Assembly (NCBI GenBank): GCA_034408725.1
Contig: JAWXCN010000117.1
Span: 1-15,093, forward strand
Reading direction: 5' to 3'
Source: Candidatus Hydrogenedentota bacterium
Lineage (GTDB): Bacteria > Hydrogenedentota > Hydrogenedentia > Hydrogenedentales > SLHB01
Length of the DNA stretch: 15,093 nucleotides
Position 1 is the first letter of the stretch; every line of letters starts with the position of its first letter. Below the pieces are notes generated by a model that was not told the DNA's origin, did no database searches, and saw only the letters and a program-made list of their open reading frames with translations. The position numbers and the translations under genes are program-made. Below are positions 474 through 15,093 of the stretch, piece after piece.

Positions 474-2711
474 TTGAATAGCACTTCGCCATCCTCCGTT
501 CCCACGTTTCCGCGCGTGCTGGTCGCTGTGTGCGCGGCGGCGATTATCGTGCTGGGCATTGCCGCTAGTTTCGCGACGGCGCGTCTCCGCACGGATAATT
601 CCATCGAGCATTGGCTGAATCCATCGAGCCCCGCGACACTCGATTACGCGCGTTTCAGGCAAATGTTCGGCGCGGACGAATTTATTGTCGTGTGCATTTC
701 GGGCAAGCCTTTGTTCGACCAAGCCGCGTTGGATGCGATGCTCATAGCGCAGGATGCCCTGCTTCGCGTGCCGGAGGTCCATCGCGTCGCTGGAATTCCC
801 GCGGTGTATCGCGACGTATTTGGCGCGGAAGACCCGGACGCCCTCCAGGCTGAATTCACGTCCACGCCATTTTATCGCGGGCTATATATTTCACCGGATG
901 CCACCGCCGCGGGTTTATTCCTCGAAATCGTCCCGCCGGAAGATAGTCCCGAGCGAAGCGCGATGCTTTCAGAGATCGAAGCCGCCGCGCAACCATTGCG
1001 CGACCATGGTTTTCGCGTGGACCTCGTCGGCCCGCCGACGCTGAATGTTGCGCTCGACGAAATCTCCGAGCGGGAAACGCGCCGCGCCATTCCGATCGCG
1101 CTCGTTTGTTCAATCATCATGTTATTGGTCCTGCTGCGCAGTGCCCGCGCTGTGCTTGTCGCATGCGTCTGCGCGTGGCTCAGCGTGGTGATCCCGCTAG
1201 GTCTGATTCATGTCTCTGGTTACACCCTCACGATGGTCAGTTCGGTGCTGCCGCCCCTGCTGTGGTCGCTTTCGCTGGCGCACTCGGTGCATTTCATCAC
1301 GCACTACTACCGCCACCGCACGCGGGGTGAAGGCGTGTCCGATGCCGTCGCACGTGCGTGGTTTGAAGTGCGGCTTCCGTGCGCGCTCGCGGCGATAACG
1401 ACATCCGCGGGGTTCCTCTCGCTTGCGTTTTCGTCCATGCCGCCGATTCGGCATCTGGGCGTGTTTGCATCTATCGCGATTGTGATATCGATGGTCGCGA
1501 ACCTGGCGGTCGCGCCCACGTTGACCGCGCTGTTTCAACTTACGCCCCGGCCCCAGGCGCGTTCACGCTGGGCGCCGTTGCTACTCCGCATGGAACGCCT
1601 TGCCGAACAACGCACCTGGACCATCGTAATCGTTTTCGCCGCAATTGGAATTGCCGGCGCGATCAGCATTACCCAATTGCGGCCCGAGCCCAACCCGCTT
1701 TCCTTTCTCCCGAAAGACGCTACGGCGGTGCAGTCATACAACTTCGTGAGCGAGAATCTCACCGGCCTGTACACGCTCGAGACCGTTGTGGACTGCCCGA
1801 ATGGCTGGCTCGATCCGGCATATTGGCCCACGATAGACGCGATGACCGCGCAACTGGAGTCCGTCGAATACGTGGCGCGCAGGGCGTCGCCGTTGGACTT
1901 GTTGCGCAAGCTGAACCAATGGGACAACGCATTCGATCCCGCGACGTATGTGCTTCCCGAATCGCAAGAAGAAGCCGCGCGCTTAATTCACGAAACACCC
2001 GCATGGACGCGGAACGAGCTACAGCGGCTCGTGTCAACTGATGGAAAAACCATTCGCCTCTCGATCCTCGTGCGCGCGATGGACGCGGAACGGTTTTACG
2101 CGTTGACCGATTTCGCGCAGGGCGTGTTCGATGCTCTCGACGATGGAGTGACCGCGCGTCTCACCGGCATCGTGCTGCTGTTGAACAACGCCCAGGTCGA
2201 ACTCGCGATCACGCAGGTGAAAAGCTTCGCGTTCTCGTTCCTGACAGTATTCGCAATGATTGGCCTCGGGCTTCGATCATTGCGGCTGATGGGGCTCGCC
2301 ATGGCGCCGACGGTACTGCCGACGCTTGCGGCATTCGCAGTCATGCCGCTGCTTGGAATTCCACTTGACGCCGCCACCGTGCTGGTTGCGGGCGTTGCGC
2401 TGGGCATGGCCGACGACAACACCATTCACCTCATCGCGTCGTATCGTCTGTTGCGCAAGCCCGGCCAACCTACTACGCAAGCGGTCAGCGCCGCGCTCAT
2501 CGAAGTGGGCCCCGCGCTGATTTATTCGACCGGCACGTCGTGCATCGGATTCTTCACGTTATGCGCGTCGGAGTTTGTGCCGATTCGCTATTTCGGATTT
2601 CTTTCCGGTTTGGCCCTGCTAACAGCATTGCTCGCAAACCTGTTGCTCACTCCGGCGCTGATCCTGCTCGTCAACCGCCGCCGCGGCGGTCCCGAACGCG
2701 AAGCGATATGA
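474..2711 (+). CDS. MMPL/RND-superfamily membrane exporter (about 12 TM)
   Basis: 745 aa with two-fold repeated architecture (TM, periplasmic domain, 5 TM). Motifs include FGADEFIVV, AAITTSAGFLSL, GVALGMADDNTIH and GPALIYSTGTSCIGF. The TTG start is uncertain because the RBS is weak. Confidence 0.88.
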   Translation: MNSTSPSSVPTFPRVLVAVCAAAIIVLGIAASFATARLRTDNSIEHWLNPSSPATLDYARFRQMFGADEFIVVCISGKPLFDQAALDAMLIAQDALLRVPEVHRVAGIPAVYRDVFGAEDPDALQAEFTSTPFYRGLYISPDATAAGLFLEIVPPEDSPERSAMLSEIEAAAQPLRDHGFRVDLVGPPTLNVALDEISERETRRAIPIALVCSIIMLLVLLRSARAVLVACVCAWLSVVIPLGLIHVSGYTLTMVSSVLPPLLWSLSLAHSVHFITHYYRHRTRGEGVSDAVARAWFEVRLPCALAAITTSAGFLSLAFSSMPPIRHLGVFASIAIVISMVANLAVAPTLTALFQLTPRPQARSRWAPLLLRMERLAEQRTWTIVIVFAAIGIAGAISITQLRPEPNPLSFLPKDATAVQSYNFVSENLTGLYTLETVVDCPNGWLDPAYWPTIDAMTAQLESVEYVARRASPLDLLRKLNQWDNAFDPATYVLPESQEEAARLIHETPAWTRNELQRLVSTDGKTIRLSILVRAMDAERFYALTDFAQGVFDALDDGVTARLTGIVLLLNNAQVELAITQVKSFAFSFLTVFAMIGLGLRSLRLMGLAMAPTVLPTLAAFAVMPLLGIPLDAATVLVAGVALGMADDNTIHLIASYRLLRKPGQPTTQAVSAALIEVGPALIYSTGTSCIGFFTLCASEFVPIRYFGFLSGLALLTALLANLLLTPALILLVNRRRGGPEREAI

Positions 2712-2752
2712 AATAAAAAGGCGCCGCGTTCGGAGCGAATCGAACGCGGCGC
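2711..2752 (-). terminator. Rho-independent terminator for the minus-strand microprotein gene
   Basis: Perfect 12-bp stem GCGCCGCGTTCG (2721-2732) / CGAACGCGGCGC (2741-2752) with an 8-nt loop. On the minus strand it is followed by CTTTTTATTT. It lies between convergent stops at 2711 and 2775. Confidence 0.85.
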
Positions 2753-2774
2753 GGGGCTATACGTTTCAATGAAA

Positions 2775-2972
2775 TTACGCGGCGTGTACCACTTCCCTGC
2801 GGGAAGCTTCTCGCGCTTGCGCGCGGCGATACAACTCGCCGAATGCCTCCGCGGCGCATCCCGGGCAGTATCCGTGGCTCACGAGTGTCTCGTGATGGTT
2901 AACCGGCTTGCCCAGTGCAAACCACTGACCATCTTCACGAACTTTCTCACATACACAGCATTGAACTATCAT
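2775..2972 (-). CDS. Small putative zinc-binding protein, 65 aa (CxxC...W...SHGYCPxC)
   Basis: Sequence MIVQCCVCEKVREDGQW...VSHGYCPGCAAEAF. GGGAGG (2982-2987) is flush against the ATG at 2981 but 9 nt from the ATG at 2972, which favours 2972 as the start. It is bracketed by its own promoter and terminator. Confidence 0.8.
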   Translation of the reverse strand: MIVQCCVCEKVREDGQWFALGKPVNHHETLVSHGYCPGCAAEAFGELYRRAQAREASRREVVHAA

Positions 2973-3019
2973 CTCGAACATCCTCCCGGGTTCCGTCCCG
3001 AGTTCTGTATCGTAGAGAG

Positions 3020-3036
3020 AGCATAGTCTGTGCCAA
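3020..3036 (-). promoter_or_regulatory. Sigma54 (RpoN) -24/-12 promoter
   Basis: The minus strand reads TTGGCACAGACTATGCT. This gives TGGCAC and exact GG-N10-GC spacing, with one mismatch (ATGC for TTGC) to the consensus TGGCAC-N5-TTGCW. The predicted TSS is near 3009, about 37 nt before the start at 2972. Confidence 0.75.
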
Positions 3037-3060
3037 ATATCCCGTATAACCCGATTTCCT

Positions 3061-3073
3061 CTATAAGTGTTTA
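3061..3073. promoter_or_regulatory. Possible IHF site upstream of the sigma54 promoter
   Basis: CTATAAGTGTTTA partially matches the IHF core (C/T)AA-N4-TTR. It sits in an AT-rich tract about 55-65 bp upstream of the predicted TSS, a typical position at sigma54 promoters. Confidence 0.35.
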
Positions 3074-3233
3074 CCTTTCCATGTCTTTAACGTTACGTGC
3101 GGCAAGGACAATGCTGATTTAGCCCTGTCGTTCTGGCAAACACGGCAAATTATTCCACTGGTTGCCAAAATTAAGTGCCCGGAATCCCGTCAGTCCGACG
3201 AAATCTGGGCAGGATTGGGTTCCAGAATTAGCA

Positions 3234-3262
3234 TTTTCGGCGTATATCCCGGCTGTTACGTT
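3234..3262 (+). promoter_or_regulatory. Possible sigma70 extended -10 promoter for the ABC operon
   Basis: TG-T-TACGTT at 3254-3262 with a weak -35 (TTTTCG, 3234-3239) at 17-bp spacing, about 48 nt upstream of the start at 3310. Confidence 0.3.
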
Positions 3263-3309
3263 GCGCGGAAGTGTCCGAATGCGTTAGGGTAGCGGCAGAG
3301 GAGTGTCCC

Positions 3310-4239
3310 TTGATCGAGGTTAGCGGGTTGACAAAGGTTTACGGCACGATTACGGCCGTACAGGACCTTTCGTTCCGGGTAGCGAAGGGCGAAATCATCG
3401 GGTTTCTTGGGCCTAACGGGGCCGGGAAAAGCACGACTATGCGTATTCTTACCGGGTTCACGCCGCCCACCAGCGGGGTTGCGAAGGTCGCCGGATTTCA
3501 CATCGAAGACCAGCCGATAGAGGTCAAGCGGCGCGTCGGCTACATGCCGGAGAACGTACCCGCGTATGGCGAGATGCTGGTTCGCGCATTTTTGCGGTAT
3601 GCGGCGGAGGTAAAGTGCGTCGCGCGGGGGAGTTTGGCCGCGGAAGTGGACCGCGTGATGTCTCGATGCGGCCTGGGAGACATGGCAAACCGGGTAATTC
3701 GCAATCTGTCGAAGGGCTACCGCCAGCGCCTGGGCCTTGCGCAGGCGCTCATTGGAAACCCACCGGTGCTGATCCTGGATGAGCCCACTTCGGGCCTGGA
3801 CCCAAAACAGATTGTCGAAATCCGCCAGGTGATCAAGGAACTTGCGCCGGAACACACCGTACTGCTGAGCACACACATCCTGCCCGAGGTTGCGATGGTG
3901 TGCGAGCGCGTCATCATTATCAACCGCGGCCACATCGTCGCGCAGGACACCATGCACAATCTCACGGGCGGCGACACGGAGTTGCTCGAGGTCGAAGCGC
4001 GCGGCGTTTCCGATGCAATCGTGTCAAAGCTTAGCGCGATTCCCGGCGTGACGACTGTCGAAACGCTCGGCAATGGGCGTTACCACGTGTCCGCGCCGCG
4101 CGGATCGAACCTGAACGAGGCTATCATCGCCGCGCTTGCGCAGGGGGACTGCGGCCTCACGGGCATTCAACGCAAGCGCCGGACGCTCGAAGATGTTTTC
4201 ATTGCCGCGGTCGCGTCCGATCAGGGAGCGGCGGAATGA
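3310..4239 (+). CDS. ABC-2-type transporter ATP-binding protein (GldA-like)
   Basis: Walker A GPNGAGKST, signature LSKGYRQR, Walker B/D-loop LILDEPTSGLD, H-loop LSTH and a C-terminal TLEDVF. GAGGAG at 3298-3303 supports the TTG start at 3310 (MIEVSGLTK) rather than 3271. Confidence 0.95.
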   Translation: MIEVSGLTKVYGTITAVQDLSFRVAKGEIIGFLGPNGAGKSTTMRILTGFTPPTSGVAKVAGFHIEDQPIEVKRRVGYMPENVPAYGEMLVRAFLRYAAEVKCVARGSLAAEVDRVMSRCGLGDMANRVIRNLSKGYRQRLGLAQALIGNPPVLILDEPTSGLDPKQIVEIRQVIKELAPEHTVLLSTHILPEVAMVCERVIIINRGHIVAQDTMHNLTGGDTELLEVEARGVSDAIVSKLSAIPGVTTVETLGNGRYHVSAPRGSNLNEAIIAALAQGDCGLTGIQRKRRTLEDVFIAAVASDQGAAE

Positions 4240-5069
4240 GAAGTGCCTGGGCCGTCTGCAAGCGCGAGCTTGTAAGCTTTTTTACCACTCCGGTCGGTTA
4301 CGTAATCGTCGGCACGTATGCGGCGATTGCCGGCCTTGGGTTCGCCGCGTCTTTCACCGAGTTTTGCGCCATTACAGTCAACCCGGCGGAGAAGGGCTAC
4401 GAGGGCATCCCAAAACTGGAAGAGTTGTTGATAAGCCCCTACCTGCTTTTCTGCGGCCAGCTCCTGATGTTCATCGGGCCATTGATCACCATGCGATTGC
4501 TTGCGGAAGAACGCAGCCGGGGAACGATGGAGCTATTGCTCACCTATCCCTTGCGTGACCGCGATATTGTGTTCGGCAAGTTTGGCGCGGCCTTGGGCAT
4601 AGTGCTCGTGCTGATGGCAATCGTCGGGGTGCATCTCGCAGTCGTAGGCGTCTATACCGACGTCGAACCCGCGGTGCTGGCCTTCGGCCTGCTCACGTTG
4701 TTTTTGATGAGCGCGGCGTTCATGAGCCTCGGACTCTTTGTGTCGGCGTGGACGCGCAACGCGGTGACGGCCGGCGTCGTCACGTTCGCGCTATGGTTTA
4801 TTTCCTATATCGTGGGCACTTTCGGCCAATCGCTGCCGGGAGCGCCCGCAAATATTCCGGCGCAACTCGGGGTAAACGCCGGGCGCGCCATTGGTTTCAT
4901 GTGGGGCATTTTCCGTCAACTTGTCGTTGAGCTTCCGCTGGACCGTCACGCCGAACGCATGGCGCAGGGTATCGTCCAGCCGCAGGACATCGCGTACTAT
5001 TTGCTGTTCACCGTGTTTTTTCTTTTCCTGACGTTCCGCGCGCTCGAATCGCGGCGGTGGAGGGCGTAA
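4236..5069 (+). CDS. ABC-2-type permease (GldF-like)
   Basis: Motifs KRELVSFFTTPVGY, PLITMRLLAEERSRGTMELLLTYP, IVFGKF and a C-terminal RALESRRW. It has about 6 TM segments and an ATGA overlap with the upstream gene. Confidence 0.92.
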   Translation: MRSAWAVCKRELVSFFTTPVGYVIVGTYAAIAGLGFAASFTEFCAITVNPAEKGYEGIPKLEELLISPYLLFCGQLLMFIGPLITMRLLAEERSRGTMELLLTYPLRDRDIVFGKFGAALGIVLVLMAIVGVHLAVVGVYTDVEPAVLAFGLLTLFLMSAAFMSLGLFVSAWTRNAVTAGVVTFALWFISYIVGTFGQSLPGAPANIPAQLGVNAGRAIGFMWGIFRQLVVELPLDRHAERMAQGIVQPQDIAYYLLFTVFFLFLTFRALESRRWRA

Positions 5070-5071
5070 CG

Positions 5072-6754
5072 GTGAATCGCTTGCGCATACTCTGCGGGTT
5101 GGGCGCGCTGGCTGTATTGGGGTTCGTGCTGAACATTTTCGCCATACAACGCCAGATGTTCGTGCCCCTCGTTTATGTTCCATTCCTTATTTCAGTGATG
5201 CTGGCGTTGCTCTGGGCCGTATTGTCCATCATTCTCAAAGCGACTGCCTCAAAAGAACATCGCCGCTCTGGATCGTTTAACGGCATTTTCGCCTCGATCA
5301 TTTTTCTTTGCATCTGCATGGTGACCTACGCCTTTGTCCGGAAGTGGGACCGCGCGTGGGACCTCACCGAGGAAGGCCGCGCGTCCATGGCACCGCAGAC
5401 GGTACAGGTGTTGCAGGGCCTGACCCAGGAAGTAAACGTCACTGGGTTATTTCCGCAAACGGAAGAACGCGAAATTCAGGTCGCGAGGGACAAAGCGGAG
5501 TTGTTCCTGAAACGTTGCGCGGAAATATCGCCCAATCTGAAAGTCACGTACATGGACCCCGTGAAGGAAAGGGTCCGCGCGGAAGCGATGGGGCTGAGCT
5601 TTGCTGATCCCAAGGGTTCCGTCGTCATTAAATCCGGCACGCGCCAACGTACAATCTCGCTAACGGGCGATGTGCCACGGCTTGAAGAACGCGATTTCAC
5701 GAACGCGCTTATAAATGTGCTGCAAACGTCTGAGCCCAAAATTGGGTTTCTCACTGGTCATGGAGAAAACGATGTTTCCCGTCCGGAGATGGCGACGGTG
5801 AAGCAATTGCTTGAACGCGAGAGTTACAAGGCGGAGCCGATGGCGATCAAGCCTGGAGAGGGCGGAGTGCTTGGCGATTATGACTTGCTGGTCATCAACG
5901 GACTCAACGCGCAAGAAGGCGGCGATCTTTCTCAAGATGAACTTTCCGCGTTGGACGCGTTTGCCGGCGGCGGCGGCCGGCTTCTGGTTTTCGTTGATCC
6001 ACAATTCTCGAATGATCCCGCGGCCCCGCGAAAGCGTGTGCTGGACTGGTTGCAGCAGCGCTTTGGCATTGTCGTCGGCGCGGACGTAGTCATCGCGGAT
6101 CAGCGCATTGAATCGCGGCTCGGTGAGATCACGCTGTACTCCGATGTCGCCGCGACCGCGCAATTCGGTGAAATTGACGTGCCGGACGTCGAGTTCAACG
6201 GATGCTACGAACAGTCAAGTCCCATCACGCGCGGGTTCGACAAACAAATGATGCTTATTGCCGCTTGCTCGGTATCGCTCGCGGAATCGCCCCCAACGAA
6301 TGTATCGGGGACAACACTGTTGCGCACGCTTCCCTACTGCTACGCGGAAACAAATCTTATCGCGTTGATGCAGGGCAAACCGCCCACCCGCGACCCGCAG
6401 GAAAAAATGGGCTCGATCAGTTTGGCCGCGTCCACCGTCATGCAAACCGATGTGCCTGTCGGCGATACGGGTCAAATGAAAAGCGCCCGAGTCGTGGTTG
6501 TCGGCGACACAGAATTTATCACGAACGAAACCATACGGCTCGGCGGCAACCTGAACTTCTTCATGAACACAGTCGCATGGCTAACCGAACGCGAGCAATT
6601 GATCGCAATCCGCCCGACGGGCCGCGAAAACCAGCCCATTAAATTGTCCAGTGCCGACGAAACGTTTATATGGTGGGTCGCCGGCCTCGGCGTGGTCCAG
6701 ATCGTTCTGATCGCGTCGTTCGTCATGTATCTGGCGCGGAGACGCTACGCGTGA
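5072..6754 (+). CDS. GldG-like ABC transporter auxiliary component (ABC_transp_aux type)
   Basis: N-terminal TMs, WDLTEEG...APQT, FTNALI...IGFLTGHGE, GGRLLVFVDP, RVVVVGDTEF...NLNFFMNTVAWL...LIAIRP and a C-terminal TM ending RRR. GGAGGG at 5059-5064 supports the GTG start at 5072. Confidence 0.88.
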   Translation: MNRLRILCGLGALAVLGFVLNIFAIQRQMFVPLVYVPFLISVMLALLWAVLSIILKATASKEHRRSGSFNGIFASIIFLCICMVTYAFVRKWDRAWDLTEEGRASMAPQTVQVLQGLTQEVNVTGLFPQTEEREIQVARDKAELFLKRCAEISPNLKVTYMDPVKERVRAEAMGLSFADPKGSVVIKSGTRQRTISLTGDVPRLEERDFTNALINVLQTSEPKIGFLTGHGENDVSRPEMATVKQLLERESYKAEPMAIKPGEGGVLGDYDLLVINGLNAQEGGDLSQDELSALDAFAGGGGRLLVFVDPQFSNDPAAPRKRVLDWLQQRFGIVVGADVVIADQRIESRLGEITLYSDVAATAQFGEIDVPDVEFNGCYEQSSPITRGFDKQMMLIAACSVSLAESPPTNVSGTTLLRTLPYCYAETNLIALMQGKPPTRDPQEKMGSISLAASTVMQTDVPVGDTGQMKSARVVVVGDTEFITNETIRLGGNLNFFMNTVAWLTEREQLIAIRPTGRENQPIKLSSADETFIWWVAGLGVVQIVLIASFVMYLARRRYA

Positions 6755-8589
6755 AGACGCGCACGAACATAATTTTGCTGGTTGTGCTGCTTGCGTTGTG
6801 CGTTGGTTATTGGCTGTTGGTGAGGGGCCTGTTTGAAAGAAAACAGCAGGCGATTGAAGCGAAACGCCTCTACTCATTTGCCAGCGCCGATGTAACCGCC
6901 ATCACCATTTTGCGTGAAGGCGAACGCGCAACTACCGGCGTGCGCGACGCCGCGAAAAGTGGCTGGCGGGTTACGCAGCCAACCGGAATTGTCGCCAATG
7001 CGCAGGTCTGGGAGCGGGTCGCGACGAGCATCGCAGAACTTCGCAACGAACAAACCATCGATGAGGAAGCGTCAAATCCGGCGGATTTTGGATTGGACGA
7101 GCCCGTCCTCGAAGTCACTGCGCAAACCGCTTCGGGCGACGGCATTGCCGTCGCATTCGGCATGATGGACCCCACGCAGAAATTCCGGTATGCGCGCGAA
7201 GGGGATGGCCCCATTTTCCTGGCCCATCCCGACCAATTTTTTTTGTTGGACCGTAATCTCGAATGGTTGCGCGACCGCAATTTGTTCAAGGTAGGCGATG
7301 CCGGCATCACCCGCATCGAGTTCACGCCCATGCGCGCCGCGAAAAGTGCCCCGGAGAAGGGCGCGGCGGCGGTCGAAGAATCGACGACGGTGATCGCGGA
7401 AAAGAATGCCCAGGGTGTATGGTCGATTGTCGCCCCGCAACCCGGCACGGCGGACCAGCAGATGTTGAATACACTCGCGAGCGAACTCCAGTTTGCGATG
7501 GGACGCGACTACATCGAGAACCCGGAAAACCTCACAGACTATCAGCTTGCTCCGCCTCGCGCCCGCGTAAGCATTCAGAGCGGCGCGGACGGCCCCTTGC
7601 AAACCGCGTATTTCGGCACGTTTGAACGTGAGCGAAAAGAAGACGCCGGAGTATTTGTGATGCAGGAAGGCATGCCGGCAGTCTTCGTCGTGGATGCGAG
7701 CATCGTAACGAACTTCCCCTTGTCTTCGCCCGATGCGTGGCGCGAAAAACGGCTCATCACGCGGCAGGGCGGCGATATCACGTCGCTGAAGTACGCGGCG
7801 GGTCCTCAACAGTTCCTGCTCAGCAATGACGAAACACAAGGCTGGATTCTGAAGGAACCGCGGGAAGAACCGACGGACCAAGCCGCGGTGTCACGGTTCA
7901 TCGGCGATTTGCTTGAAATGAAAGGTAGCCAATCATTCACCGAACGCAAACCGGAATTCGGGTTGGACGTGCCTGCGATACGCATGATGCTGACCTTCAG
8001 GGGCGCCAATGAACCCGTTGAAATTCTCGTGGGCGCGGCGACCGCAGATGAATCGCGATACTACGTCACGCAGGATTCCGGCACGGTGATTACGCTGCCG
8101 CAAAAGGATGTCGACGCGCTGGCCGTGAGCATGAAAAAGTTCATGTCGCGCGGCCTACTCTCCTTCCAAAAAAATACCGCGACTAACGTCGTGCTCACAC
8201 TCGACAATACGCGCCATGTTTTTGCGCGCGGTGAACAACAATGGAAAATTACTGAACCCGCGGACAAGGTCTGGGAAAGCCAGGATGATATGCAGACCAT
8301 TCTCGATACTTTTGCGTCGTTTTCCGCGGAGTCTGTGGATGCCGCGGAAGCCCCGGCCGATTTATCTCCGTTCGGCCTCGACAAGCCCGCTTTGACCGTT
8401 CAGGTTGCGGCGCTTCCCGACGGTGCGGCAGAACCTGTGACTTTGCCCGTTGTAATCATCGGGAGCGCGTGCCCAGATGACGCGCACCTGCGTTATGCAC
8501 AAGTCGAAGGCCGCCCGCAGATTTATCGTGTAAAACAGGCTGCCGTTAGCGAAGTGCGCGACGCATTGCGCGGGGTTGTAGACCAATAG
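6751..8589 (+). CDS. Membrane-anchored DUF4340-like protein with four internal repeats
   Basis: GTGA overlap with the upstream stop, preceded by GGAGA. An N-terminal TM/signal (MKTRTNIILLVVLLALCVGYW) is followed by repeated W-x3-4-P and (F/Y)(G/Q)L-x2-P motifs. This is the usual fourth gene of GldAFG-like operons. Confidence 0.8.
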   Translation: MKTRTNIILLVVLLALCVGYWLLVRGLFERKQQAIEAKRLYSFASADVTAITILREGERATTGVRDAAKSGWRVTQPTGIVANAQVWERVATSIAELRNEQTIDEEASNPADFGLDEPVLEVTAQTASGDGIAVAFGMMDPTQKFRYAREGDGPIFLAHPDQFFLLDRNLEWLRDRNLFKVGDAGITRIEFTPMRAAKSAPEKGAAAVEESTTVIAEKNAQGVWSIVAPQPGTADQQMLNTLASELQFAMGRDYIENPENLTDYQLAPPRARVSIQSGADGPLQTAYFGTFERERKEDAGVFVMQEGMPAVFVVDASIVTNFPLSSPDAWREKRLITRQGGDITSLKYAAGPQQFLLSNDETQGWILKEPREEPTDQAAVSRFIGDLLEMKGSQSFTERKPEFGLDVPAIRMMLTFRGANEPVEILVGAATADESRYYVTQDSGTVITLPQKDVDALAVSMKKFMSRGLLSFQKNTATNVVLTLDNTRHVFARGEQQWKITEPADKVWESQDDMQTILDTFASFSAESVDAAEAPADLSPFGLDKPALTVQVAALPDGAAEPVTLPVVIIGSACPDDAHLRYAQVEGRPQIYRVKQAAVSEVRDALRGVVDQ

Positions 8590-8619
8590 CGCCTTTTGAG
8601 CGAGAGGAAAATTCTGTTC

Positions 8620-9501
8620 ATGTCCGATCGGAAACCGTTGTTGGGAGTCATTGGCGGGAGCGGGGTGTACGACTTCGCCGGGCTCGAGAACAAGCGTTGG
8701 GTAAAAGTCGGGTCCCCGTTTGGCGAGCCGTCCGATGAGTTGTTGTTTGGCGAATTCGCGGACGAGCTGCTCGTGTTTCTTCCGCGCCACGGCCGCGGTC
8801 ATCGCATTCCACCGTCTGAGATCAATTTTCGCGCGAACATTGACGCCATGAAACGTGCCGGGGTAACACAAATCCTGTCGATCAGCGCCGTCGGGTCGCT
8901 ACGGGAGAATCTTCACCCTGGCGATTTTGTCATCGTCGATCAGTTTATCGACCGCACTTTCGCGCGCAACAAGAGCTTTTTTGGTATGGGCATGGTCGCG
9001 CACGTTTCCATGGCGAACCCCGTGTGCGGGCATCTGGGCGATTGCATCGAAAGCGCGGCCAGTGCCCTTGCGCTTAAAGTCAAGCGCGGGGGCACGTACA
9101 TGGTTATGGAAGGTCCGCAGTTTTCTTCGATCGCAGAATCCCACCTTTACCGTCAGTGGGGTTGCGACGTAATTGGCATGACCAACATGCCCGAAGCAAA
9201 ACTCGCGCGCGAAGCGGAGATGTGTTACGCCACCGTCGCAATGGTCACGGACTACGATTGTTGGCACACTGACCATGACCACGTCACCGTCGATCAGATC
9301 ATCAAGGTGCTGCATGCGAACGCGGACAACGCGCGCGATCTGGTGAAGCACCTGGTGCCGGTGTTGAAACAGCCTGGTTGCGTCTGTAATAAAGGCTGCC
9401 AGACGGCCCTCGAATTCGCACTGATTACTGCGCCGGACGCGCGTGATCCGGCTGTGCTGAAAAAACTCGACGCCGTCGCCGGGCGCATCCTCGCCTCTTA
9501 G
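8620..9501 (+). CDS. mtnP: S-methyl-5'-thioadenosine phosphorylase
   Basis: Motifs GVIGGSG, PFGEPSD, FLPRHGRGH, INFRANI, SAVGSL, EGPQFS, IGMTNMPEAKLAREAE and VTDYDCW. GAGAGG upstream supports the ATG at 8620. Confidence 0.93.
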   Translation: MSDRKPLLGVIGGSGVYDFAGLENKRWVKVGSPFGEPSDELLFGEFADELLVFLPRHGRGHRIPPSEINFRANIDAMKRAGVTQILSISAVGSLRENLHPGDFVIVDQFIDRTFARNKSFFGMGMVAHVSMANPVCGHLGDCIESAASALALKVKRGGTYMVMEGPQFSSIAESHLYRQWGCDVIGMTNMPEAKLAREAEMCYATVAMVTDYDCWHTDHDHVTVDQIIKVLHANADNARDLVKHLVPVLKQPGCVCNKGCQTALEFALITAPDARDPAVLKKLDAVAGRILAS

Positions 9502-9509
9502 CACAGGGC

Positions 9510-10337
9510 ATGTACGCCATCATCATCCACGGCGGCGCGGGCCAATGGCCTTCGGAACGATTGCATCGCGCGCAGGAGGGTGTTGAACGCGCGCTCCATG
9601 TCGGGACATCGATTCTGATCCGGAACGGCACCGCGCTTGACGCGGTCGAGAACGCCGTGCGCATACTTGAGGATGACCCCGTATTCGATGCAGGGACTGG
9701 TTCCTACGCCAATACCGATGGCGAAGTCGAGATGGACGCAATCATCGCCGACGGCGCGACGGGAAAATTCGGCGCTGTCGCGGCAATCCGAAACGTCCGG
9801 AACCCGGTGTCTGTCGCGCGTAAAATCATGGAGGAAACCCCGCATTGTTTGCTTGCTGGAAATGGCGCAACCCGGTTCGCACACGCCAACGGCTTTGAAT
9901 TCACCCCTACCCAAATTCTACTCGGCGATGCGGCATCGCCGCTCGGGGACACCGTCGGCGCCGTCGCCCTTGATGAACGCGGCCATATCGCCGTCGCAAC
10001 ATCCACGGGCGGCACGCGCGGCAAAATGCCGGGACGCGTCGGCGATTCTCCCCTGTTCGGATGTGGCGCGTATGCGAACATCAATTGCGGCGTCTCGACG
10101 ACAGGCGTTGGCGAATACATCATGCGCACGCTGCTTGCGAAAACCGTAGGTGACGGAATCGACCGGGGATTGACGCCCGCTCTAGCGATCAAAGGCGCCC
10201 TCGCAAAACTTGAACATATCGGCGGGCATGGTGGAATTATCGCGCTCGACCGCGAAGGCCGGGTTGGGTTCGTGTGTAATACGGTTGCCATGCCGGTTGC
10301 GTTCATTGATGGCAAGGGGTTGCGCGGAGAGGAGTAG
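9510..10337 (+). CDS. iaaA: Isoaspartyl peptidase/L-asparaginase (Ntn-hydrolase, asparaginase 2 family)
   Basis: Motifs IIIHGGAG, LEDDPVFDAGTGS, VEMDA, RNPVSVAR, the autocleavage nucleophile D/TVGAVA, ATSTGG, GRVGDSPLFGCG and TGVGE. Confidence 0.92.
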   Translation: MYAIIIHGGAGQWPSERLHRAQEGVERALHVGTSILIRNGTALDAVENAVRILEDDPVFDAGTGSYANTDGEVEMDAIIADGATGKFGAVAAIRNVRNPVSVARKIMEETPHCLLAGNGATRFAHANGFEFTPTQILLGDAASPLGDTVGAVALDERGHIAVATSTGGTRGKMPGRVGDSPLFGCGAYANINCGVSTTGVGEYIMRTLLAKTVGDGIDRGLTPALAIKGALAKLEHIGGHGGIIALDREGRVGFVCNTVAMPVAFIDGKGLRGEE

Positions 10338-10549: not shown

Positions 10550-12382
10550 ATGCGCCATGGGGCGAGCTTGATAGCAGGGCTCGAAGGCTTGAGCCGGCCT
10601 GCGTTCCGCATCGCAAAAGAATTGACGCTGAACAGCCGCTCGGGCCTGACCGTGCGTTTTCTATCCAAAAAACTCGAAGTGTCCGAAGAGGAAGTCGAGT
10701 ACATCATTGATGTAAACCACCGCATTTTTTTTACCGACATTACCAAGGTGAAATTGGTGGCCGAAGGCCCTCTGGTGGTGAAGCGCATTTCCGATGGCCT
10801 CGAAAACCGGGGCGACGTCCCCTCACTCGTGAATCTCGTGAAAGGGCTTGGCCCCCACGAATTCCGGCGTCTCGAAGAACAAATTGGGATTGATAAACCG
10901 GGCGGCAAAAAGGCGGCCGCGGAAGAGATCATCGCGCGCTGCTACGAGCATCCTGATTCCGTCGTCGAGTACGTTGCTTCGCGCGGTTTTTCGACCGCGG
11001 CGCAGGAGGTCTTCGATATCGTTTGGCAGACGCGCCAGGGCGTACTGCCAGCCGCGGCGATCCGCGGCGCGGCGGGCAAATCGGATTACGCGGTCGAGCA
11101 GGCAATGCTCGAGCTGTTTCAGGGGTTTGTCCTTTTCGAGATGTTCCGTTTCGACAGCGAAGACCGCTTGGTGCGCGCGGCCGGGGTGCTCTCGGAATTG
11201 CGGCAATGGCGCGAAGCATCACGCTCGAACGGCACGGGTAAGCACGCGCTTCGTTCCCTGAAAATAAAACCGCAAAGCATTGATGCCCGTGGGCTCGATC
11301 TCTCGGACCGCATCTGCCGCCTCGTAGCCGCAATTGCCGCCCGGCCCGCGCGAGTACGGGGTGACGGCGAATTGTTCCGCGAAGACCGGAAACGTCTTCA
11401 GGAGTTGTGCCCCGACGAAAACGAACCGTCATTGCGCACTTGCCTTTGGATGGCGCAGGGTCTGGGTTGGCTGGCGCGCGTGGATAGCGAGCTGCGCGCA
11501 GGCGAACTTGAATCGCTGTTATCGCTCAATCGCGTTGGCCGCCATCGCATCCTGTTTGAATGGATGATGACCAACGGCAGCGAGCCGCTGTCGCGCAGAC
11601 GCATGGGCGAATTGCTTGACGAGATAAAACCGGACTCCTGGTACCCTGCGACAGATTTCGTCGAGCATGCGCAACGCCACAACACAGATCGTGAACAACC
11701 CGCCCTGAAAAGCGCGGGTGGCCATTGGCACTTTTCGGGCGCGAGCGACACCAATTCCGAACGTGGATTGGCGCGCTCCCTCGAAGAGTCCTTCCACTGG
11801 CTGGGTTTGGTTGACCGCACGGAGGACGGCAACCGCGGGCTATTCAGGCTGACCCAGTTGGGACGGGCCTTCATCGGCGGCGGCGACGGAATCGATTTGT
11901 CGAAGCTGTTTCCCGAACGGCGCGGCGAGATCATCGTTCAGCCAAATTTCGACATCGTCGTGCCGTCACAGGACATGGATTCGCTGCTCACCGTTCCGCT
12001 GGACCAGTTCGCCGTGCGCGGCAGCACGGGTCTTGCTACGGTCTACACACTCTCGAAAGACTCCTTCACGCGCGCGGTTCAGGAAGGGCATGACGGCGAT
12101 GGTTTTGTAAAATTTCTGTTGGACCACAACCGCGGCGGCTCGTTGCCATCGAACGTATTGCAAACCCTGGACGACTGGCGCGGCGGGATGAAGCGCGTGC
12201 GCCTGCGTACGGTGCACGTCCTCGAATCCGACGATCCCCTCGTCATGGCCGACCTGGTACACCGGCGCCGGTTTGCCAAGCATTTCGAGCAAATGGACCC
12301 GCGCACAACCGTTGCCGTCGCCCGCATCTCCAAGACTGACCTCGCCAAGGAACTCGAGAAGGAAGGGTTTGTCGTAGATTAG
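10550..12382 (+). CDS. Helicase-associated (Helicase_C_3, XPB-NTD/p52-type) domain protein without helicase motor motifs
   Basis: 610 aa. The C-terminal region reads IIVQPNFDIVV...QFA...VYTLSKDSFTRAVQEG...FL...LPSNVLQTLDDW and is preceded by WLGLV...FRLTQLG. No Walker A or DExH motif was seen. Confidence 0.78.
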   Translation: MRHGASLIAGLEGLSRPAFRIAKELTLNSRSGLTVRFLSKKLEVSEEEVEYIIDVNHRIFFTDITKVKLVAEGPLVVKRISDGLENRGDVPSLVNLVKGLGPHEFRRLEEQIGIDKPGGKKAAAEEIIARCYEHPDSVVEYVASRGFSTAAQEVFDIVWQTRQGVLPAAAIRGAAGKSDYAVEQAMLELFQGFVLFEMFRFDSEDRLVRAAGVLSELRQWREASRSNGTGKHALRSLKIKPQSIDARGLDLSDRICRLVAAIAARPARVRGDGELFREDRKRLQELCPDENEPSLRTCLWMAQGLGWLARVDSELRAGELESLLSLNRVGRHRILFEWMMTNGSEPLSRRRMGELLDEIKPDSWYPATDFVEHAQRHNTDREQPALKSAGGHWHFSGASDTNSERGLARSLEESFHWLGLVDRTEDGNRGLFRLTQLGRAFIGGGDGIDLSKLFPERRGEIIVQPNFDIVVPSQDMDSLLTVPLDQFAVRGSTGLATVYTLSKDSFTRAVQEGHDGDGFVKFLLDHNRGGSLPSNVLQTLDDWRGGMKRVRLRTVHVLESDDPLVMADLVHRRRFAKHFEQMDPRTTVAVARISKTDLAKELEKEGFVVD

Positions 12383-12400: not shown

Positions 12401-12543
12401 CTAGTGTCATGAATCCCAAATCCGTGGCAAAACTCACACGCATAGACCGATCTTCAAAGTCCCCCTTTGAAGGGGGATTTAGGGGGATGTAAGGTCTGAT
12501 TTCCAAATTTCATATCGAATGAATCTCGATCTTAGGACACTAG
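12401..12543. mobile_element. MITE-like element, 143 bp, with CTAG ends and imperfect terminal inverted repeats
   Basis: Left end CTAGTGTC (12401-12408) and right end GACACTAG (12536-12543) form a perfect 8-bp inverted repeat that extends imperfectly to 16 of 25 positions. The interior is more AT-rich than the flanking genes, and the element sits between convergent genes. Confidence 0.6.
12457..12488. repeat. REP-like C5/G5 hairpin with an extra G5 tract
   Basis: AAGTCCCCCTTTGAAGGGGGATTT forms a stem-loop and is followed immediately by a second AGGGGGAT. Confidence 0.7.
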
Positions 12544-12584
12544 TGTTCGTTTGCCTGCGCACGCTCGCGCGCTCGCTTCGTGTG

Positions 12585-13442
12585 CTAACCATAACCGGCG
12601 TCGCTGAACGTATAGTCGCGATACGCGATTCCAATTGCCAGTGCCACAAGAGCGCCGGTGGCAATGCCAGCGAACAAATTGCGGACAACGCTGTTTCGGC
12701 GCATGTTCAAATGCGCCAGCCACGGCGTGGTGGTGGATGCGGCGAGCAGCGCGATTGGCGCCGGCAACGATTGAGCATAAAAATATCCTTCAATCCAAAT
12801 CAGCGCAGTCAACAACCATGCGAGCGCGAGCGCGCCGGAGAGTGGATACCGTTGCGGAGCGAACCACGCGAGGACCGCCGCGCCAAAAAGCGCGGAAGTA
12901 ACCGCGCCTGCGAGCAGCGCAAGTTTCGCGCTCCCGGACAGCAACATGACCACACTGCCGCCGGCCATGGTGAGCAATGCGAGCGTGGCGGCGCGTGCGC
13001 GCGGGTCGCGCCGGACAAGCGCTGCGTAGGACTCCCCAATCGCGACACCACCACAAACGAGCACCGCGAGCCAGACCAATGTCTCCGCAAACTGCCAGGC
13101 ATGCGTGATCAAAGGACGAAGAACAATGGCCAAAGCTAATCCGAAAACAATAGACCGGACCGCAACCCGGAGCGGCGCGTTCTTGCTCCATCGTGACTCC
13201 GTCGCGCAAAGCACCATGAACAAGCCGCATGCGTAGACCAGCCACTGGGCGGCATCACGCGCGGGAAACAAGGGCCAGCCGAGCACTGCAATCAAGCCCG
13301 TGAATGCGCCAAACCCGACGGCCAATGCGCCGATGCTTTCCCCCCAATCTGGGTGGCGGCGTCTTAACGGCATGGCCGCCACTGCGAAAAACTGCGCGGC
13401 CACCGCGCAGGGAGCGATGGCCGCGATCAATTGCCGGAGCAT
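12585..13442 (-). CDS. Hypothetical polytopic membrane protein (285 aa, about 9-10 TM)
   Basis: Continuous run of hydrophobic segments from MLRQLIAAIAP. The ORF-track extension to 13580 overlaps yceI out of frame and does not look like protein, so the start is placed 26 nt after the yceI stop. Confidence 0.7.
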   Translation of the reverse strand: MLRQLIAAIAPCAVAAQFFAVAAMPLRRRHPDWGESIGALAVGFGAFTGLIAVLGWPLFPARDAAQWLVYACGLFMVLCATESRWSKNAPLRVAVRSIVFGLALAIVLRPLITHAWQFAETLVWLAVLVCGGVAIGESYAALVRRDPRARAATLALLTMAGGSVVMLLSGSAKLALLAGAVTSALFGAAVLAWFAPQRYPLSGALALAWLLTALIWIEGYFYAQSLPAPIALLAASTTTPWLAHLNMRRNSVVRNLFAGIATGALVALAIGIAYRDYTFSDAGYG

Positions 13443-13468
13443 CAATTCGACTTCTGATTGGTCCGTCG

Positions 13469-14056
13469 TTACTTTTTTGCGCCTTCGATACCGATGCGGA
13501 TCGTTACTTCGGCCCCGATCGCATCGGGCATGAACGCCATCCCGAAATCGGTGCGGTCGATGACAAGCGTAGCATCCCAACCGGCGAGTTGCTGGCCTTT
13601 CTGGCCTTTGCCAACGCCCACGAATTCGGCGTCGAGCGTCACAGACTTGGTAACGCCGAGGATGGTCAGATCACCCGTGACCTCGTAGGTCTCGCCTTCC
13701 TTCTTCTTGAAGCTTGTGCTCTTAAACGTCATCGTGGGGAATTCGGTGGCATTAAAGAAATCCGGGCCGCTCAGGTGTTTGTCGCGCGCCTTGTTGGCGG
13801 TGTCAATACTCGCCGTTTTGACCTCAATTTCAATGGAATTCTTGGCCGGATCGGCAGCGTCAATGGTGAAGCTCCCGGATGCCTCGTTAAACCTTCCATA
13901 CGAGTAACTTGCACCCAGATGCTTCACACGATACAAAAACGCGGAATGGACCGGATCCACTTCGTAGACGTCCGCGGCGCTGGCGGGCAAGGCGATTACG
14001 CCGAGGGCCGCAATAAGAGAAGCTGCGAGAAAACGCGAGGCAAAAGTGCAACGCAT
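13469..14056 (-). CDS. yceI: YceI-family periplasmic polyisoprenoid/lipid-binding protein
   Basis: Signal peptide ending ASA-A. Motifs YEVDPVHS, VKHLG...GRFN, SIDT...RDKHLSGPDFFNA.EFP.MTFKS, GDLTILGVTKSV and IDRTDFGM. The RBS GAAAGGA lies 7 nt upstream. Confidence 0.93.
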   Translation of the reverse strand: MRCTFASRFLAASLIAALGVIALPASAADVYEVDPVHSAFLYRVKHLGASYSYGRFNEASGSFTIDAADPAKNSIEIEVKTASIDTANKARDKHLSGPDFFNATEFPTMTFKSTSFKKKEGETYEVTGDLTILGVTKSVTLDAEFVGVGKGQKGQQLAGWDATLVIDRTDFGMAFMPDAIGAEVTIRIGIEGAKK

Positions 14057-14271
14057 ACAGGTTTCCTTTCATAGAATCGAGGTTGAATGCACCACGTGAA
14101 TACCTGTAAGAATGCCCTACACTTGCGATTTATTCCAGTATGAAAAGGGAATCCCCACTTTGGCGGGCGGGTTCGCGATAGAATGCCTGCCGTTCGACCC
14201 AAATGCGGCGCGGAGGATCGCGCGGTAAACCGTTGTGCGACGATAGGCATCGGAAGGAAGGGTGAACAGCT

Positions 14272-15093
14272 ATGACAAATGACCAAAACGCGACGACCGC
14301 AAGCCAGGCAGAGTCTTCCCGCGCGCTTTTGAGCCCGGGGGTGTGGGCCATGGGCGCGCTTGCCCTCTTGCTGCACCTCGTCACTGCGAATGGTTACGGC
14401 ATTTTCCGGGACGAAATGTATTATATCGCGTGCAGCGACCATCTGGCGTTGGGCTATGTAGACCATCCGCCGTTGTCTATCGCAATTCTCGCGGCGTGGC
14501 GCGCCATTTTCGGAGAGTCGCTTTTCGCGCTGCGCATACCCCCCGGCATCGCCCATGCCACTACCGCCATTTTCTTTGGCCTTATCGCGCGGGAACTGGG
14601 TGCGGCGCGATTCGGACAGTGTTTCGCGGCGCTGGCCGCCGCGCTGATGCCTGCTTACCTCGGCACCTCGTCGTTCTATTCGATGAACGGGTTTGACGTT
14701 ACTTTTTGGGCTGTCCTTGTCTACCTGCTCTGCCGGATACTGCGCACCGGGGACGCGCGCTTGTGGCTGGTCTTCGGCGTCATTGCCGGATTCGGTCTGC
14801 AGAACAAATTCAGCGTCGCCTTTCTTGGAATGGCGCTTGCCGTTGCTTTGGTGCTCTGCCTGCAATGGAAACAGCTTCGAGCGCCTCAACTCTATCTCGG
14901 CGGCGCAATCGCACTGGCGATTTTCTTGCCGCACGTCTATTGGATGTATTCGACGGATTGGATCACGCTCGAGTTCATGCGGAACGCCAGCAGCTCGAAA
15001 AACGCCGACACCAATCCACTCAAGTATTTCCTGGATCAGATTCTAATGGCCCATCCCCTCTTGCTGCCAGTCTGGATTGCGGGAGTCGTCTAC
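14272..15093 (+). CDS. GT-C fold glycosyltransferase (GT39/PMT_2, ArnT-like), 3'-truncated by the window edge
   Basis: Manual translation: MTNDQ...LHLVTANGYGIFRDEMYYIACSDHLALGYVDHPPL...FGESLFALR...SMNGFD...GFGLQNKFS...IFLPHVYW. The RDE-x-YY and DHPPL motifs are present, the frame is open to the window end, and GGAAGG(G) lies upstream. Confidence 0.9.
   Translation, partial: MTNDQNATTASQAESSRALLSPGVWAMGALALLLHLVTANGYGIFRDEMYYIACSDHLALGYVDHPPLSIAILAAWRAIFGESLFALRIPPGIAHATTAIFFGLIARELGAARFGQCFAALAAALMPAYLGTSSFYSMNGFDVTFWAVLVYLLCRILRTGDARLWLVFGVIAGFGLQNKFSVAFLGMALAVALVLCLQWKQLRAPQLYLGGAIALAIFLPHVYWMYSTDWITLEFMRNASSSKNADTNPLKYFLDQILMAHPLLLPVWIAGVVY

Follow-up and report, generated by a model that had tools for sequence, protein, structure and literature searches.

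A predicted sigma-54-dependent zinc-finger microprotein of Hydrogenedentota and its relation to a C-terminal sensor module

The window analyzed here is a 15,093-nt stretch of contig JAWXCN010000117.1 from a Candidatus Hydrogenedentota bacterium (assembly GCA_034408725.1); all coordinates are positions in this window unless another contig or locus is named. On its minus strand, 2972-2775 is a genuine monocistronic gene for a 65-residue, cysteine-rich protein. It is very probably a real sigma-54-dependent zinc microprotein gene and, as judged by sequence homology, its product is the free-standing form of an unnamed C-terminal sensor module. The best explanation as a whole, favored on balance, is a sigma-54-switched zinc module that would serve as a trans-acting copy of a sensor output. 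Small stand-alone zinc-finger proteins and sigma-54-dependent genes are each known. The protein family, its relation to a sensor domain, the phylum-wide promoter and the pairing with an ATP-binding cassette (ABC) operon are new, and no description of any of these was found in the libraries and literature searched, subscription literature lying outside that search.

The sigma-54 promoter and the transcription unit

The promoter of the microprotein gene (TGGCACAGACTATGCT) lies at 3035-3020 on the minus strand, with the GG doublet at 3034-3033 and the GC doublet at 3022-3021. It has one mismatch to TGGCAC-N5-TTGCW, and the two doublets are exactly 10 nt apart. It stands above chance only because the motif is conserved in related loci. 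These loci came from a scan of one genome per species, in which the best 80 of 248 relatives were retained; 47 of them are labelled Hydrogenedentota, 16 “Nitrospir-” and the rest are mixed. The “Nitrospir-” labels are not trusted because several of these loci share near-identical proteins and synteny with Hydrogenedentota. The motif was counted when GG-N10-GC plus at least 9 of the 11 consensus positions occurred in the stretch from -120 to -30 before the ATG.

By this measure the motif is present at 58 of the 80 loci, equivalent to 58 of the 77 stand-alone loci, counts that are not independent as the loci are mutually related. Its density is 8.06 per kb against a background of 0.097 per kb in the other 1.08 million strand-bases, an enrichment of approximately 83-fold. 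At a threshold of at least 10/11 it is found in 32 of the 80 loci (4.4 per kb against 0.015 per kb in the background). The signal is specific for strand and position: the opposite strand of the same stretch carries the motif in a single locus of the 80, and the sense strand farther upstream in none of the 80. The first T of the motif is located 50-81 nt 5′ of the ATG, with a single exception at 103 nt. When the proteins are clustered at 70% identity, 46 of the 63 clusters hold a motif-bearing member. Sixty-two promoters contain 42 distinct N5 spacers; the doublets are thus fixed as the intervening sequence drifts. The family form of the promoter is tTGGCAY-G-N4-ATGCT, in which, for 53 of the 62, the -12 element begins with A where the consensus has its first T. 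This pattern of conservation argues strongly that the microprotein gene is read only from the sigma-54 promoter.

The machinery for such a promoter is encoded in the same genome. A gene for sigma-54, rpoN, is present, its DNA-binding domain being found on contig C114 (E 4.1e-63). There are 22 PF00158 activator domains above the cut-off, of which 16 reach E<=1e-47 and correspond to approximately 16 full-length activator ATPase domains. Genome-wide, 105 promoter sites match at 10/11 or better, and several of these precede genes typical of sigma-54 regulons.

The open reading frame (ORF) extends from 2981 to 2775 on the minus strand and would give 68 residues if read from its first ATG, an alternative in-frame start at 2981 that adds three residues. 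Matches to homologues begin at query residue 4, which is the second Met (2972), and in an alignment of 150 family sequences Met occupies column 1 in 89% of the rows. An identical product in public protein predictions has 65 residues. The 65-residue form is taken as the product because the relatives start at the second Met and the public prediction has the same length. The coding sequence, with the stop codon counted in, is therefore 2775..2972 and its product reads MIVQCCVCEKVR...W...SHGYCPGCAAEAF...VVHAA; the Cys/His pattern in the translation is CCVCEKVR...W...SHGYCPGC. Against same-genus orthologues the proportion of nonsynonymous differences (pN) is 0.13-0.14 and that of synonymous differences (pS) 0.73-0.85, the synonymous sites being saturated. 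The ratio of the corresponding rates (dN/dS) is approximately 0.06 for loci L010 and L097, with dS saturated for L009. These values indicate that the gene is under strong purifying selection.

Translation would be initiated from a Shine–Dalgarno sequence, GGGAGG (2987-2982, minus strand), which is 9 nt 5′ of the ATG at 2972 and abuts the ATG at 2981. The block containing it, CCCGGGAGG, is intact in three of the five genus members and has a single change in each of L009 and L011. A hairpin, CUCGGG-ACGGAA-CCCGGG, can form in the 5′ untranslated region (2985..3002, minus strand), with its 3′ arm over the first three G of the Shine–Dalgarno sequence. Its minimum-free-energy fold of -13 kcal/mol (z -1.4) is not significant alone. 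The hairpin sequence is kept in four of the five genus members, with four pairs only in the fifth, and compensatory changes were not seen. Transcription is predicted to start at 3009 on the minus strand, as given by the usual sigma-54 start distance from the GC element at 3022-3021, leaving a leader of approximately 37 nt. The unit closes with an intrinsic terminator (2711..2752, minus strand). Its 12-bp G+C-rich stem encloses an 8-nt loop (2752-2721), has 10 G-C pairs out of 12 and is followed by the T-run CTTTTTATTT. The fold has an energy of -26.8 kcal/mol (z -3.7), which was equalled by none of 200 shuffles. A search of 2600-3400 against Rfam gave no match at E<=1.

The preliminary description of this DNA, made from the letters alone, had proposed a self-contained transcription unit of the sigma-54 type with five elements. 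The conserved motif, the presence of rpoN and the approximately 16 activators lend support to such a unit. Four of the elements, namely the -24/-12 promoter, the GGGAGG ribosome binding site, the 65-residue ORF and the 12-bp terminator with its U-tract, are confirmed by the results above, as is the conservation of the promoter upstream of orthologues. The fifth, a possible IHF site, was not recovered: when at most one mismatch is allowed, the consensus WATCAANNNNTTR is absent from 2711-3300, and it has five matches elsewhere in the window against 6.55 expected. Many sigma-54 promoters have an IHF site between themselves and the activator site, but it is not obligatory. The expectation that annotation pipelines could easily miss the gene is not supported, as the 65-residue product is already predicted publicly and two close relatives are annotated at NCBI.

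A weak candidate for the activator-binding site is an inverted repeat at 3131..3170 (TTCTGGCAAACA / TGGTTGCCAAAA). Its 12-nt arms are 83% complementary and 16 nt apart, and its center is approximately 141 nt upstream of the predicted start. Other elements have been noted in related loci. AATCAA occurs 27-28 nt upstream of the T of TGGCA in 16 of the 63 promoter-bearing loci and resembles an IHF core in the expected place, and AGTGTA occurs 52-53 nt upstream of the same T in 17 of the 63. Carriers of AGTGTA or AATCAA include L029, L033, L036, L038, L041 and L083; both elements are absent from the window and from the genus.

The genome contains five promoters of the form TGGCAC-N5-ATGCT, three of which share an upstream TGTACAGTTA element. 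It is seen as TGTACAGTTA(A/C)TT approximately 105-135 nt upstream of the promoters on contigs C95, C182 and C272. Judging from translations only, the genes behind these promoters encode a 59-residue protein, a small hydrophobic-tailed protein of 56 residues and a 475-residue protein with a signal-peptide-like N-terminus. The shared element is probably the binding site of one activator, which would define a small sigma-54 regulon. Membership of the microprotein gene in this regulon was considered and rejected, as its promoter lacks the TGTACAGTTA element.

Free and sensor-fused forms of a zinc-finger module

When 1.84 billion cluster representatives were searched exhaustively with HMMER, 431 matched the family at E<=1e-3, mostly 55-90 residues in length. 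Among the best 150 of the 431, 142 are no longer than 123 residues, and among the remaining eight are an unrelated protein of 1408 residues and another that was probably called too long. The sequences share the consensus MxVQCCVCxKVRxxGxW...(about 12)...VSHGYCPxCAxxAFxEI. At least 90% of these 150 sequences have C5, C6, C8, W17, S32, H33, Y35, C36 and P37, and C39 is invariant. The pairs C5/C8 and C36/C39, each of the form C-x2-C, are kept in at least 99%. Conservation also extends to positions that are not ligands: Q4, R12, W17, Y35, F44 and E46. Homologues that preserve the Cys/His pattern described earlier therefore exist in quantity.

The closest relatives are 68-83% identical; two of these are Candidatus Hydrogenedentota proteins that NCBI annotates as “hypothetical protein”. 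At E<=1e-5 a match was found in 117 of 135 Hydrogenedentota genomes, in 75 of the 86 of high quality and in 60 of 66 genera, with 1-13 copies per matching genome. By these profile matches, the family is near-universal and multi-copy in Hydrogenedentota. A scan of metagenomes yielded six relatives and added no close orthologues. In a tree of 78 family members, 13 of the 75 branches are supported, the ABC labels on that tree being derived from a cruder ORF-based call. Database searches gave little else: the window protein has no match in Pfam or NCBIfam, a Pfam scan of the 150 members returned scattered weak matches only, and the ESM Atlas returned only clusters labelled “hypothetical protein”.

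Longer relatives carry the same motif at the C-terminus, after REC, PAS, CHASE, GAF or MASE6 domains, or other membrane parts, and a long helix; in some of them the whole unit is tandemly duplicated. When 36 fused modules were compared with the stand-alone family by hhalign, a probability of 99.6% (E 1.3e-23) was obtained over 50 columns, in a test that was not blind, the fused modules having been gathered by similarity to the stand-alone family. Pfam and NCBIfam contain nothing above the cut-off for the module in the fused proteins. On the strength of this homology, the microprotein is the free-standing form of an unnamed C-terminal sensor module. The fused C-x2-C...SHG-x-CP-x-C module, which had been invoked in the preliminary description, thus exists and is homologous.

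The window protein and the fused module share C-x2-C-x-K-x-R...W...SHG-x-CP-x-C and the predicted order of strands and helix. The window protein differs in having neither a sensor domain nor a coiled-coil linker, and it begins exactly at the first strand of the module. The loop from Trp to SHG has approximately 14 residues in the window protein, whereas it has approximately 20, with a short helix, in the fused module. A sigma-54 promoter of its own is a feature of the window gene and not of the fused module.

A count of copies in this genome (5.17 Mb, 92% complete), as the preliminary description had suggested, gave exactly three that are significant. Two are stand-alone, namely the window gene and a 70-residue paralogue on C15, and one is fused to REC. 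The fused copy, the only one in the genome, is on contig C205 (11532-12158, plus strand; positions 1048-1671 of locus L003) and encodes a 208-residue response regulator consisting of REC, a long helix and the Cys4 module. The C15 paralogue (approximately 32330-32540, minus strand) reads MTVQCCKCKRVR...SHTYCPVCA and stands beside a divergent gene that is taken as MazG-like from its translation alone. In a cultured organism, Citrifermentans bremense R1, a 212-residue REC-module response regulator lies directly downstream of a hybrid PAS histidine kinase, which has 647 residues (locus L085, 1562-4159).

The AlphaFold2 model of the microprotein has a predicted local distance difference test (pLDDT) score of 87.8, with strands at 2-5, 11-13, 16-18 and 31-34 and a helix at 37-62. 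Strands 2-5 and 11-13 flank C5/C8, and the helix begins at C36-P37. The predicted fold is thus a small beta-sheet that bears one CxxC knuckle, with SHGYCPxC following where the long C-terminal helix starts. In the model this layout appears typical of a treble-clef Zn(Cys)4 finger, and zinc binding is predicted. One Cys pair on a hairpin and the other at the helix start make up the treble-clef arrangement, a name that was not assigned by any tool. In the model of the REC-linked copy on C205, a long linker helix precedes elements in the same order, to which a short inserted helix is added (pLDDT 90.1). Prediction of a homodimer from two copies and two zinc ions gave a score of 0.00 in a run without controls, a result that speaks neither for nor against a dimer.

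Comparisons of structure returned no significant relative. Foldseek against the Protein Data Bank (PDB) gave no row at E<=0.001; its top rows, at a nonsignificant E of 0.8-3, are structural Zn(Cys)4 domains from regulators of the Fur, Zur and PerR types. With VIA-align, Z did not exceed 2.7 for any of 48,161 chains, and all that a PDB profile search produced was a match of part of the knuckle to ribosomal protein L44e (E 0.006). The ZAD domain (7poh_B) and the A20 finger of Rabex-5 are the top VIA-align rows. Both have a treble-clef zinc site in which a long helix starts at the second Cys pair, a layout similar to the one predicted for the window protein. These alignments are within noise (Z 2.7 and 2.5, root-mean-square deviation 5.6 and 3.9 Å, over 48 and 43 residues, respectively). 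Both domains are eukaryotic and nothing indicates common descent with the window protein.

Known families of small zinc proteins were considered in turn. DUF2197 (PF09963), which comprises small bacterial zinc-ribbon proteins, is the most frequent weak Pfam match, being returned for seven of the 150 members with a best E of 8.7e-4. Membership was rejected: the window protein has no match, member P0004 scores 15.6 bits against a cut-off of 22.2, and the other six are known by E-value only. The ZAS-type anti-sigma zinc motif is H-x3-C-x2-C. This assignment was likewise rejected, as the spacing here is H33-x2-C36-x2-C39 and the zf-HC2 family is absent from the Pfam results. The C(P)XCG proteins of Haloferax volcanii, such as HVO_0758, resemble the window protein in being stand-alone, of at most 70 residues and provided with two Cys pairs, and regulatory or stress-related roles have been proposed for them (PMC11241148, PMC10716476, PMC6562870). 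They differ in being archaeal and in having the motif C(P)XCG rather than CCxC...SHGYCPxC, and they are not known to have a sigma-54 promoter or sensor-fused counterparts. No search performed here gave a sequence relation between the two groups.

The divergent ABC operon and other neighbors

A conserved divergent pairing of the microprotein gene with a gldA/F/G-like ABC operon is a further new finding, which the preliminary description had missed. In the window, the operon begins with a GldA-like ABC ATPase (3310..4239, plus strand). The longest ORF of the ATPase starts at GTG 3271, and the genus alignment makes TTG 3310, preceded by the ribosome binding site AGAGGAG at 3297-3303, the probable start. 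The ATPase has matches in Pfam and NCBIfam, including TIGR03522 at E 3.9e-91 but under the cut-off of that model. It is followed on the plus strand by a GldF-like ABC-2 permease (4236-5069), a GldG-like auxiliary protein (5057-6754) and a DUF4340 protein (6670-8589), all assigned from Pfam and NCBIfam.

In 52 of the 80 loci, a tblastn search located a divergent orthologue of the ATPase (51-89% identity) upstream of the microprotein gene, at a distance of no more than 700 nt. The intergenic region between the two is 337 nt in the window and approximately 300-380 nt across loci. With the motif scored at 8/11 or better and 40-110 nt before the ATG, it is carried by 51 of the 52 ABC-paired loci and by 11 of the 28 loci without the pairing. 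In 4-kb flanks, the permease cluster recurs in 36 of 81 loci and the GldG-like cluster in 41 of 81, whereas the largest common gene cluster on the downstream side covers 10 of 81. As the upstream side is conserved and the downstream side is not, the ABC pairing is kept while the surroundings shuffle.

Within the shared intergenic region, two plus-strand blocks upstream of the ATPase, TTGCGCGGAAGT (3261-3272) and ATGCGTTA (3279-3286), are kept in five of five genus sequences; these may be the promoter or operator of the ABC operon. A clade-specific palindrome, (C/T)TCCA-N3-TGGA(G/A), is located in the same region of other loci, 140-173 nt before the microprotein ATG. It is carried by L014, L020, L024, L027, L031, L033, L036, L037, L038 and L041 and is absent from the window.

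On the other side of the microprotein gene, a convergent gene for an MMPL/HAE3-type RND transporter (474..2711, plus strand) ends at the terminator and is not a conserved neighbor. The other genes of the window encode a fragment of a PhyH-type dioxygenase, a phosphorylase (PNP_UDP_1) and proteins assigned to Asparaginase_2 and Helicase_C_3 (regions 2-436, 8596-10337 and 10550-12382, plus strand). Several ORFs without a Pfam match occupy 12519-14934. None of these genes is conserved beside the microprotein gene.

Proposed mechanism, rival explanations and significance

Under transcription by sigma-54 only, the gene would be silent until a signal activates an enhancer-binding ATPase. The signal, through the activator ATPase and sigma-54, would then give rise to a burst of a zinc-stabilized binding module. 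It is proposed that the free module in trans would do the job of the homologous output end of response regulators and one-component sensors. It could dock on the putative partner of the fused modules or pair with the fused modules themselves. The outcome would be a transcription-gated input added to a signalling pathway, with the adjacent ABC system as the most likely local target. That the product is a protein-binding output module acting in trans is put forward tentatively.

The end of the burst may be set by the C-terminus of the protein. Members ending in Ala-Ala number 28 of the 150, against 2.5% expected from tail composition, and a terminal Ala is found in 60 of the 150; among the long ORFs of the same genome, 39 of 3941 end in Ala-Ala. 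Ala-Ala at the C-terminus is the core of ssrA-type ClpXP signals. The frequent Ala-Ala tail may therefore mean rapid proteolytic turnover, by which the response would be transient.

In addition to the relatedness of the loci and the design of the homology test, several observations weigh against this proposal. Taken alone, the promoter match in the window is not significant, as 87 of 200 shuffles of the window yield at least one. At 9/11 or better the motif is absent from 22 of the 80 loci, among them three fused forms, almost every copy that bears the label of another phylum, and the C15 paralogue, which has no GG-N10-GC within 200 nt upstream. It follows from the motif-less loci that sigma-54 control belongs to one large group and not to the whole family. 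A Pfam scan found no activator gene within the window, and an NtrC-type activator is near the microprotein gene in only three of 81 loci. Four genus relatives do not preserve the inverted repeat of 3131-3170, and counts of inverted repeats and k-mers over 63 promoter-bearing loci revealed no common activator site, only clade-specific elements. No RNA runs containing the stretch 2500-3500 are listed, against eight DNA runs. The family median isoelectric point (pI) of 8.3 is also compatible with nucleic-acid binding, and 12 of the 28 Ala-Ala members are close relatives of the window protein.

The main rival explanation is that the module binds nucleic acid. The microprotein would then be a sigma-54-induced mini regulator of transcription or RNA, with the divergent ABC operon as its main target, and its REC- and PAS-fused relatives would be conventional DNA-binding regulators equipped with a new type of DNA-binding domain. 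The intergenic region shared by the divergent pair in 52 of the 80 loci is a classic regulator-target layout, and REC, a linker helix and a small C-terminal domain form the usual architecture of DNA-binding response regulators. Besides the basic family median, positions K10 and R12 are conserved as Lys/Arg, the helix is Arg-rich, and the palindrome TCCA-N3-TGGA occurs in the shared intergenic region of 10 of the 80 loci, against nine occurrences in 519 kb of background. The window protein itself, however, is neutral (pI 6.9, net charge 0), and the fused forms include many membrane sensors (with MASE6, CHASE or another transmembrane N-terminal part), a type that rarely has DNA-binding outputs. 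A structural match to DNA-binding zinc fingers was never significant with Foldseek or VIA-align, and an operator common to the loci was not found. Nucleic-acid binding is accordingly regarded as unlikely, though well short of far-fetched.

A metal or redox device, in which the five Cys and one His would act as a zinc buffer, a chaperone or a thiol switch that gives up its zinc when oxidized, is an improbable reading. Cys5, 6, 8, 36 and 39 and His33 each occur in at least 90% of the 150, Cys6 and His33 are surplus to a Cys4 site, and the top Foldseek rows are the Fur, Zur and PerR domains, matches that are not significant. One zinc per 65 residues would make a poor buffer, a metal-homeostasis gene is not among the conserved neighbors, and the homology to sensor outputs together with the conserved Q4, R12, W17, Y35, F44 and E46 indicates a binding surface. 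It is also very improbable that the -24/-12 match is no working promoter and that the gene is expressed from a sigma-70-type promoter or by read-through. A window this large should contain a lone sigma-54 match by chance, 22 relatives lack the motif, and TTGGCA-16-TACGAT (9/12; 3036..3009, minus strand) overlaps the sigma-54 promoter. The -10-like hexamer, however, is not kept in the genus alignment or in a profile of 62 loci, in which GG, GC and their spacing are invariant. The 83-fold enrichment of the sigma-54 motif is specific for strand and position, and read-through is precluded by the divergent orientation of the upstream gene. Scarcely credible is a precursor like those of ribosomally synthesized and post-translationally modified peptides, to be exported or modified by way of the adjacent ABC-2 transporter. 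A small Cys-rich ORF does adjoin an ABC-2 exporter, whose ATPase matches lantibiotic-protection ABC models (TIGR03740, E 5.8e-44), a generic similarity. Against this, a modifying enzyme is absent from the window and from the conserved neighbors, a leader-plus-core layout is not evident on reading the sequence, the fold is confidently predicted, and the module is homologous to C-terminal domains of cytoplasmic sensors.

If the sigma-54-switched module does act as a free copy of a sensor output, it would be a bacterial counterpart of the eukaryotic microProteins: a sigma-54-gated, liberated domain of larger regulators. Eukaryotic microProteins are described as small one-domain proteins akin to a domain of larger proteins, whose partners they engage (PMC6003976, PMC5381583). 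The same logic applies here, and under the present proposal the window protein would engage such partners as well. It differs from the eukaryotic examples in being bacterial and in having its expression gated by sigma-54.

The module is the only recognizable output on many REC, PAS, GAF, CHASE and MASE6 sensors, including the response regulator of a cultured Geobacter relative. To our knowledge, the phylum Hydrogenedentota has no cultured representative. The stand-alone form offers a tractable object: its 65 residues fold well by prediction, its promoter is clearly of the on/off kind and its genomic partner is conserved. The arrangement of promoter, gene and ABC operon, conserved across the phylum, also offers a regulatory link that can be tested for gldA/F/G-like transporters in bacteria other than the gliding ones. 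Once the module is named and its partner found, a class of “output-less” regulators would be explained.

A wider generalization, which at present is doubtful, is that in Hydrogenedentota, and less so in other phyla, this zinc-finger domain is a general sensor output of which a free copy is held under strict control by sigma-54 and its activator. Were the proposal true, transcription of a 65-residue protein would constitute an extra, transient input into post-translational signalling, wired to an ABC system.

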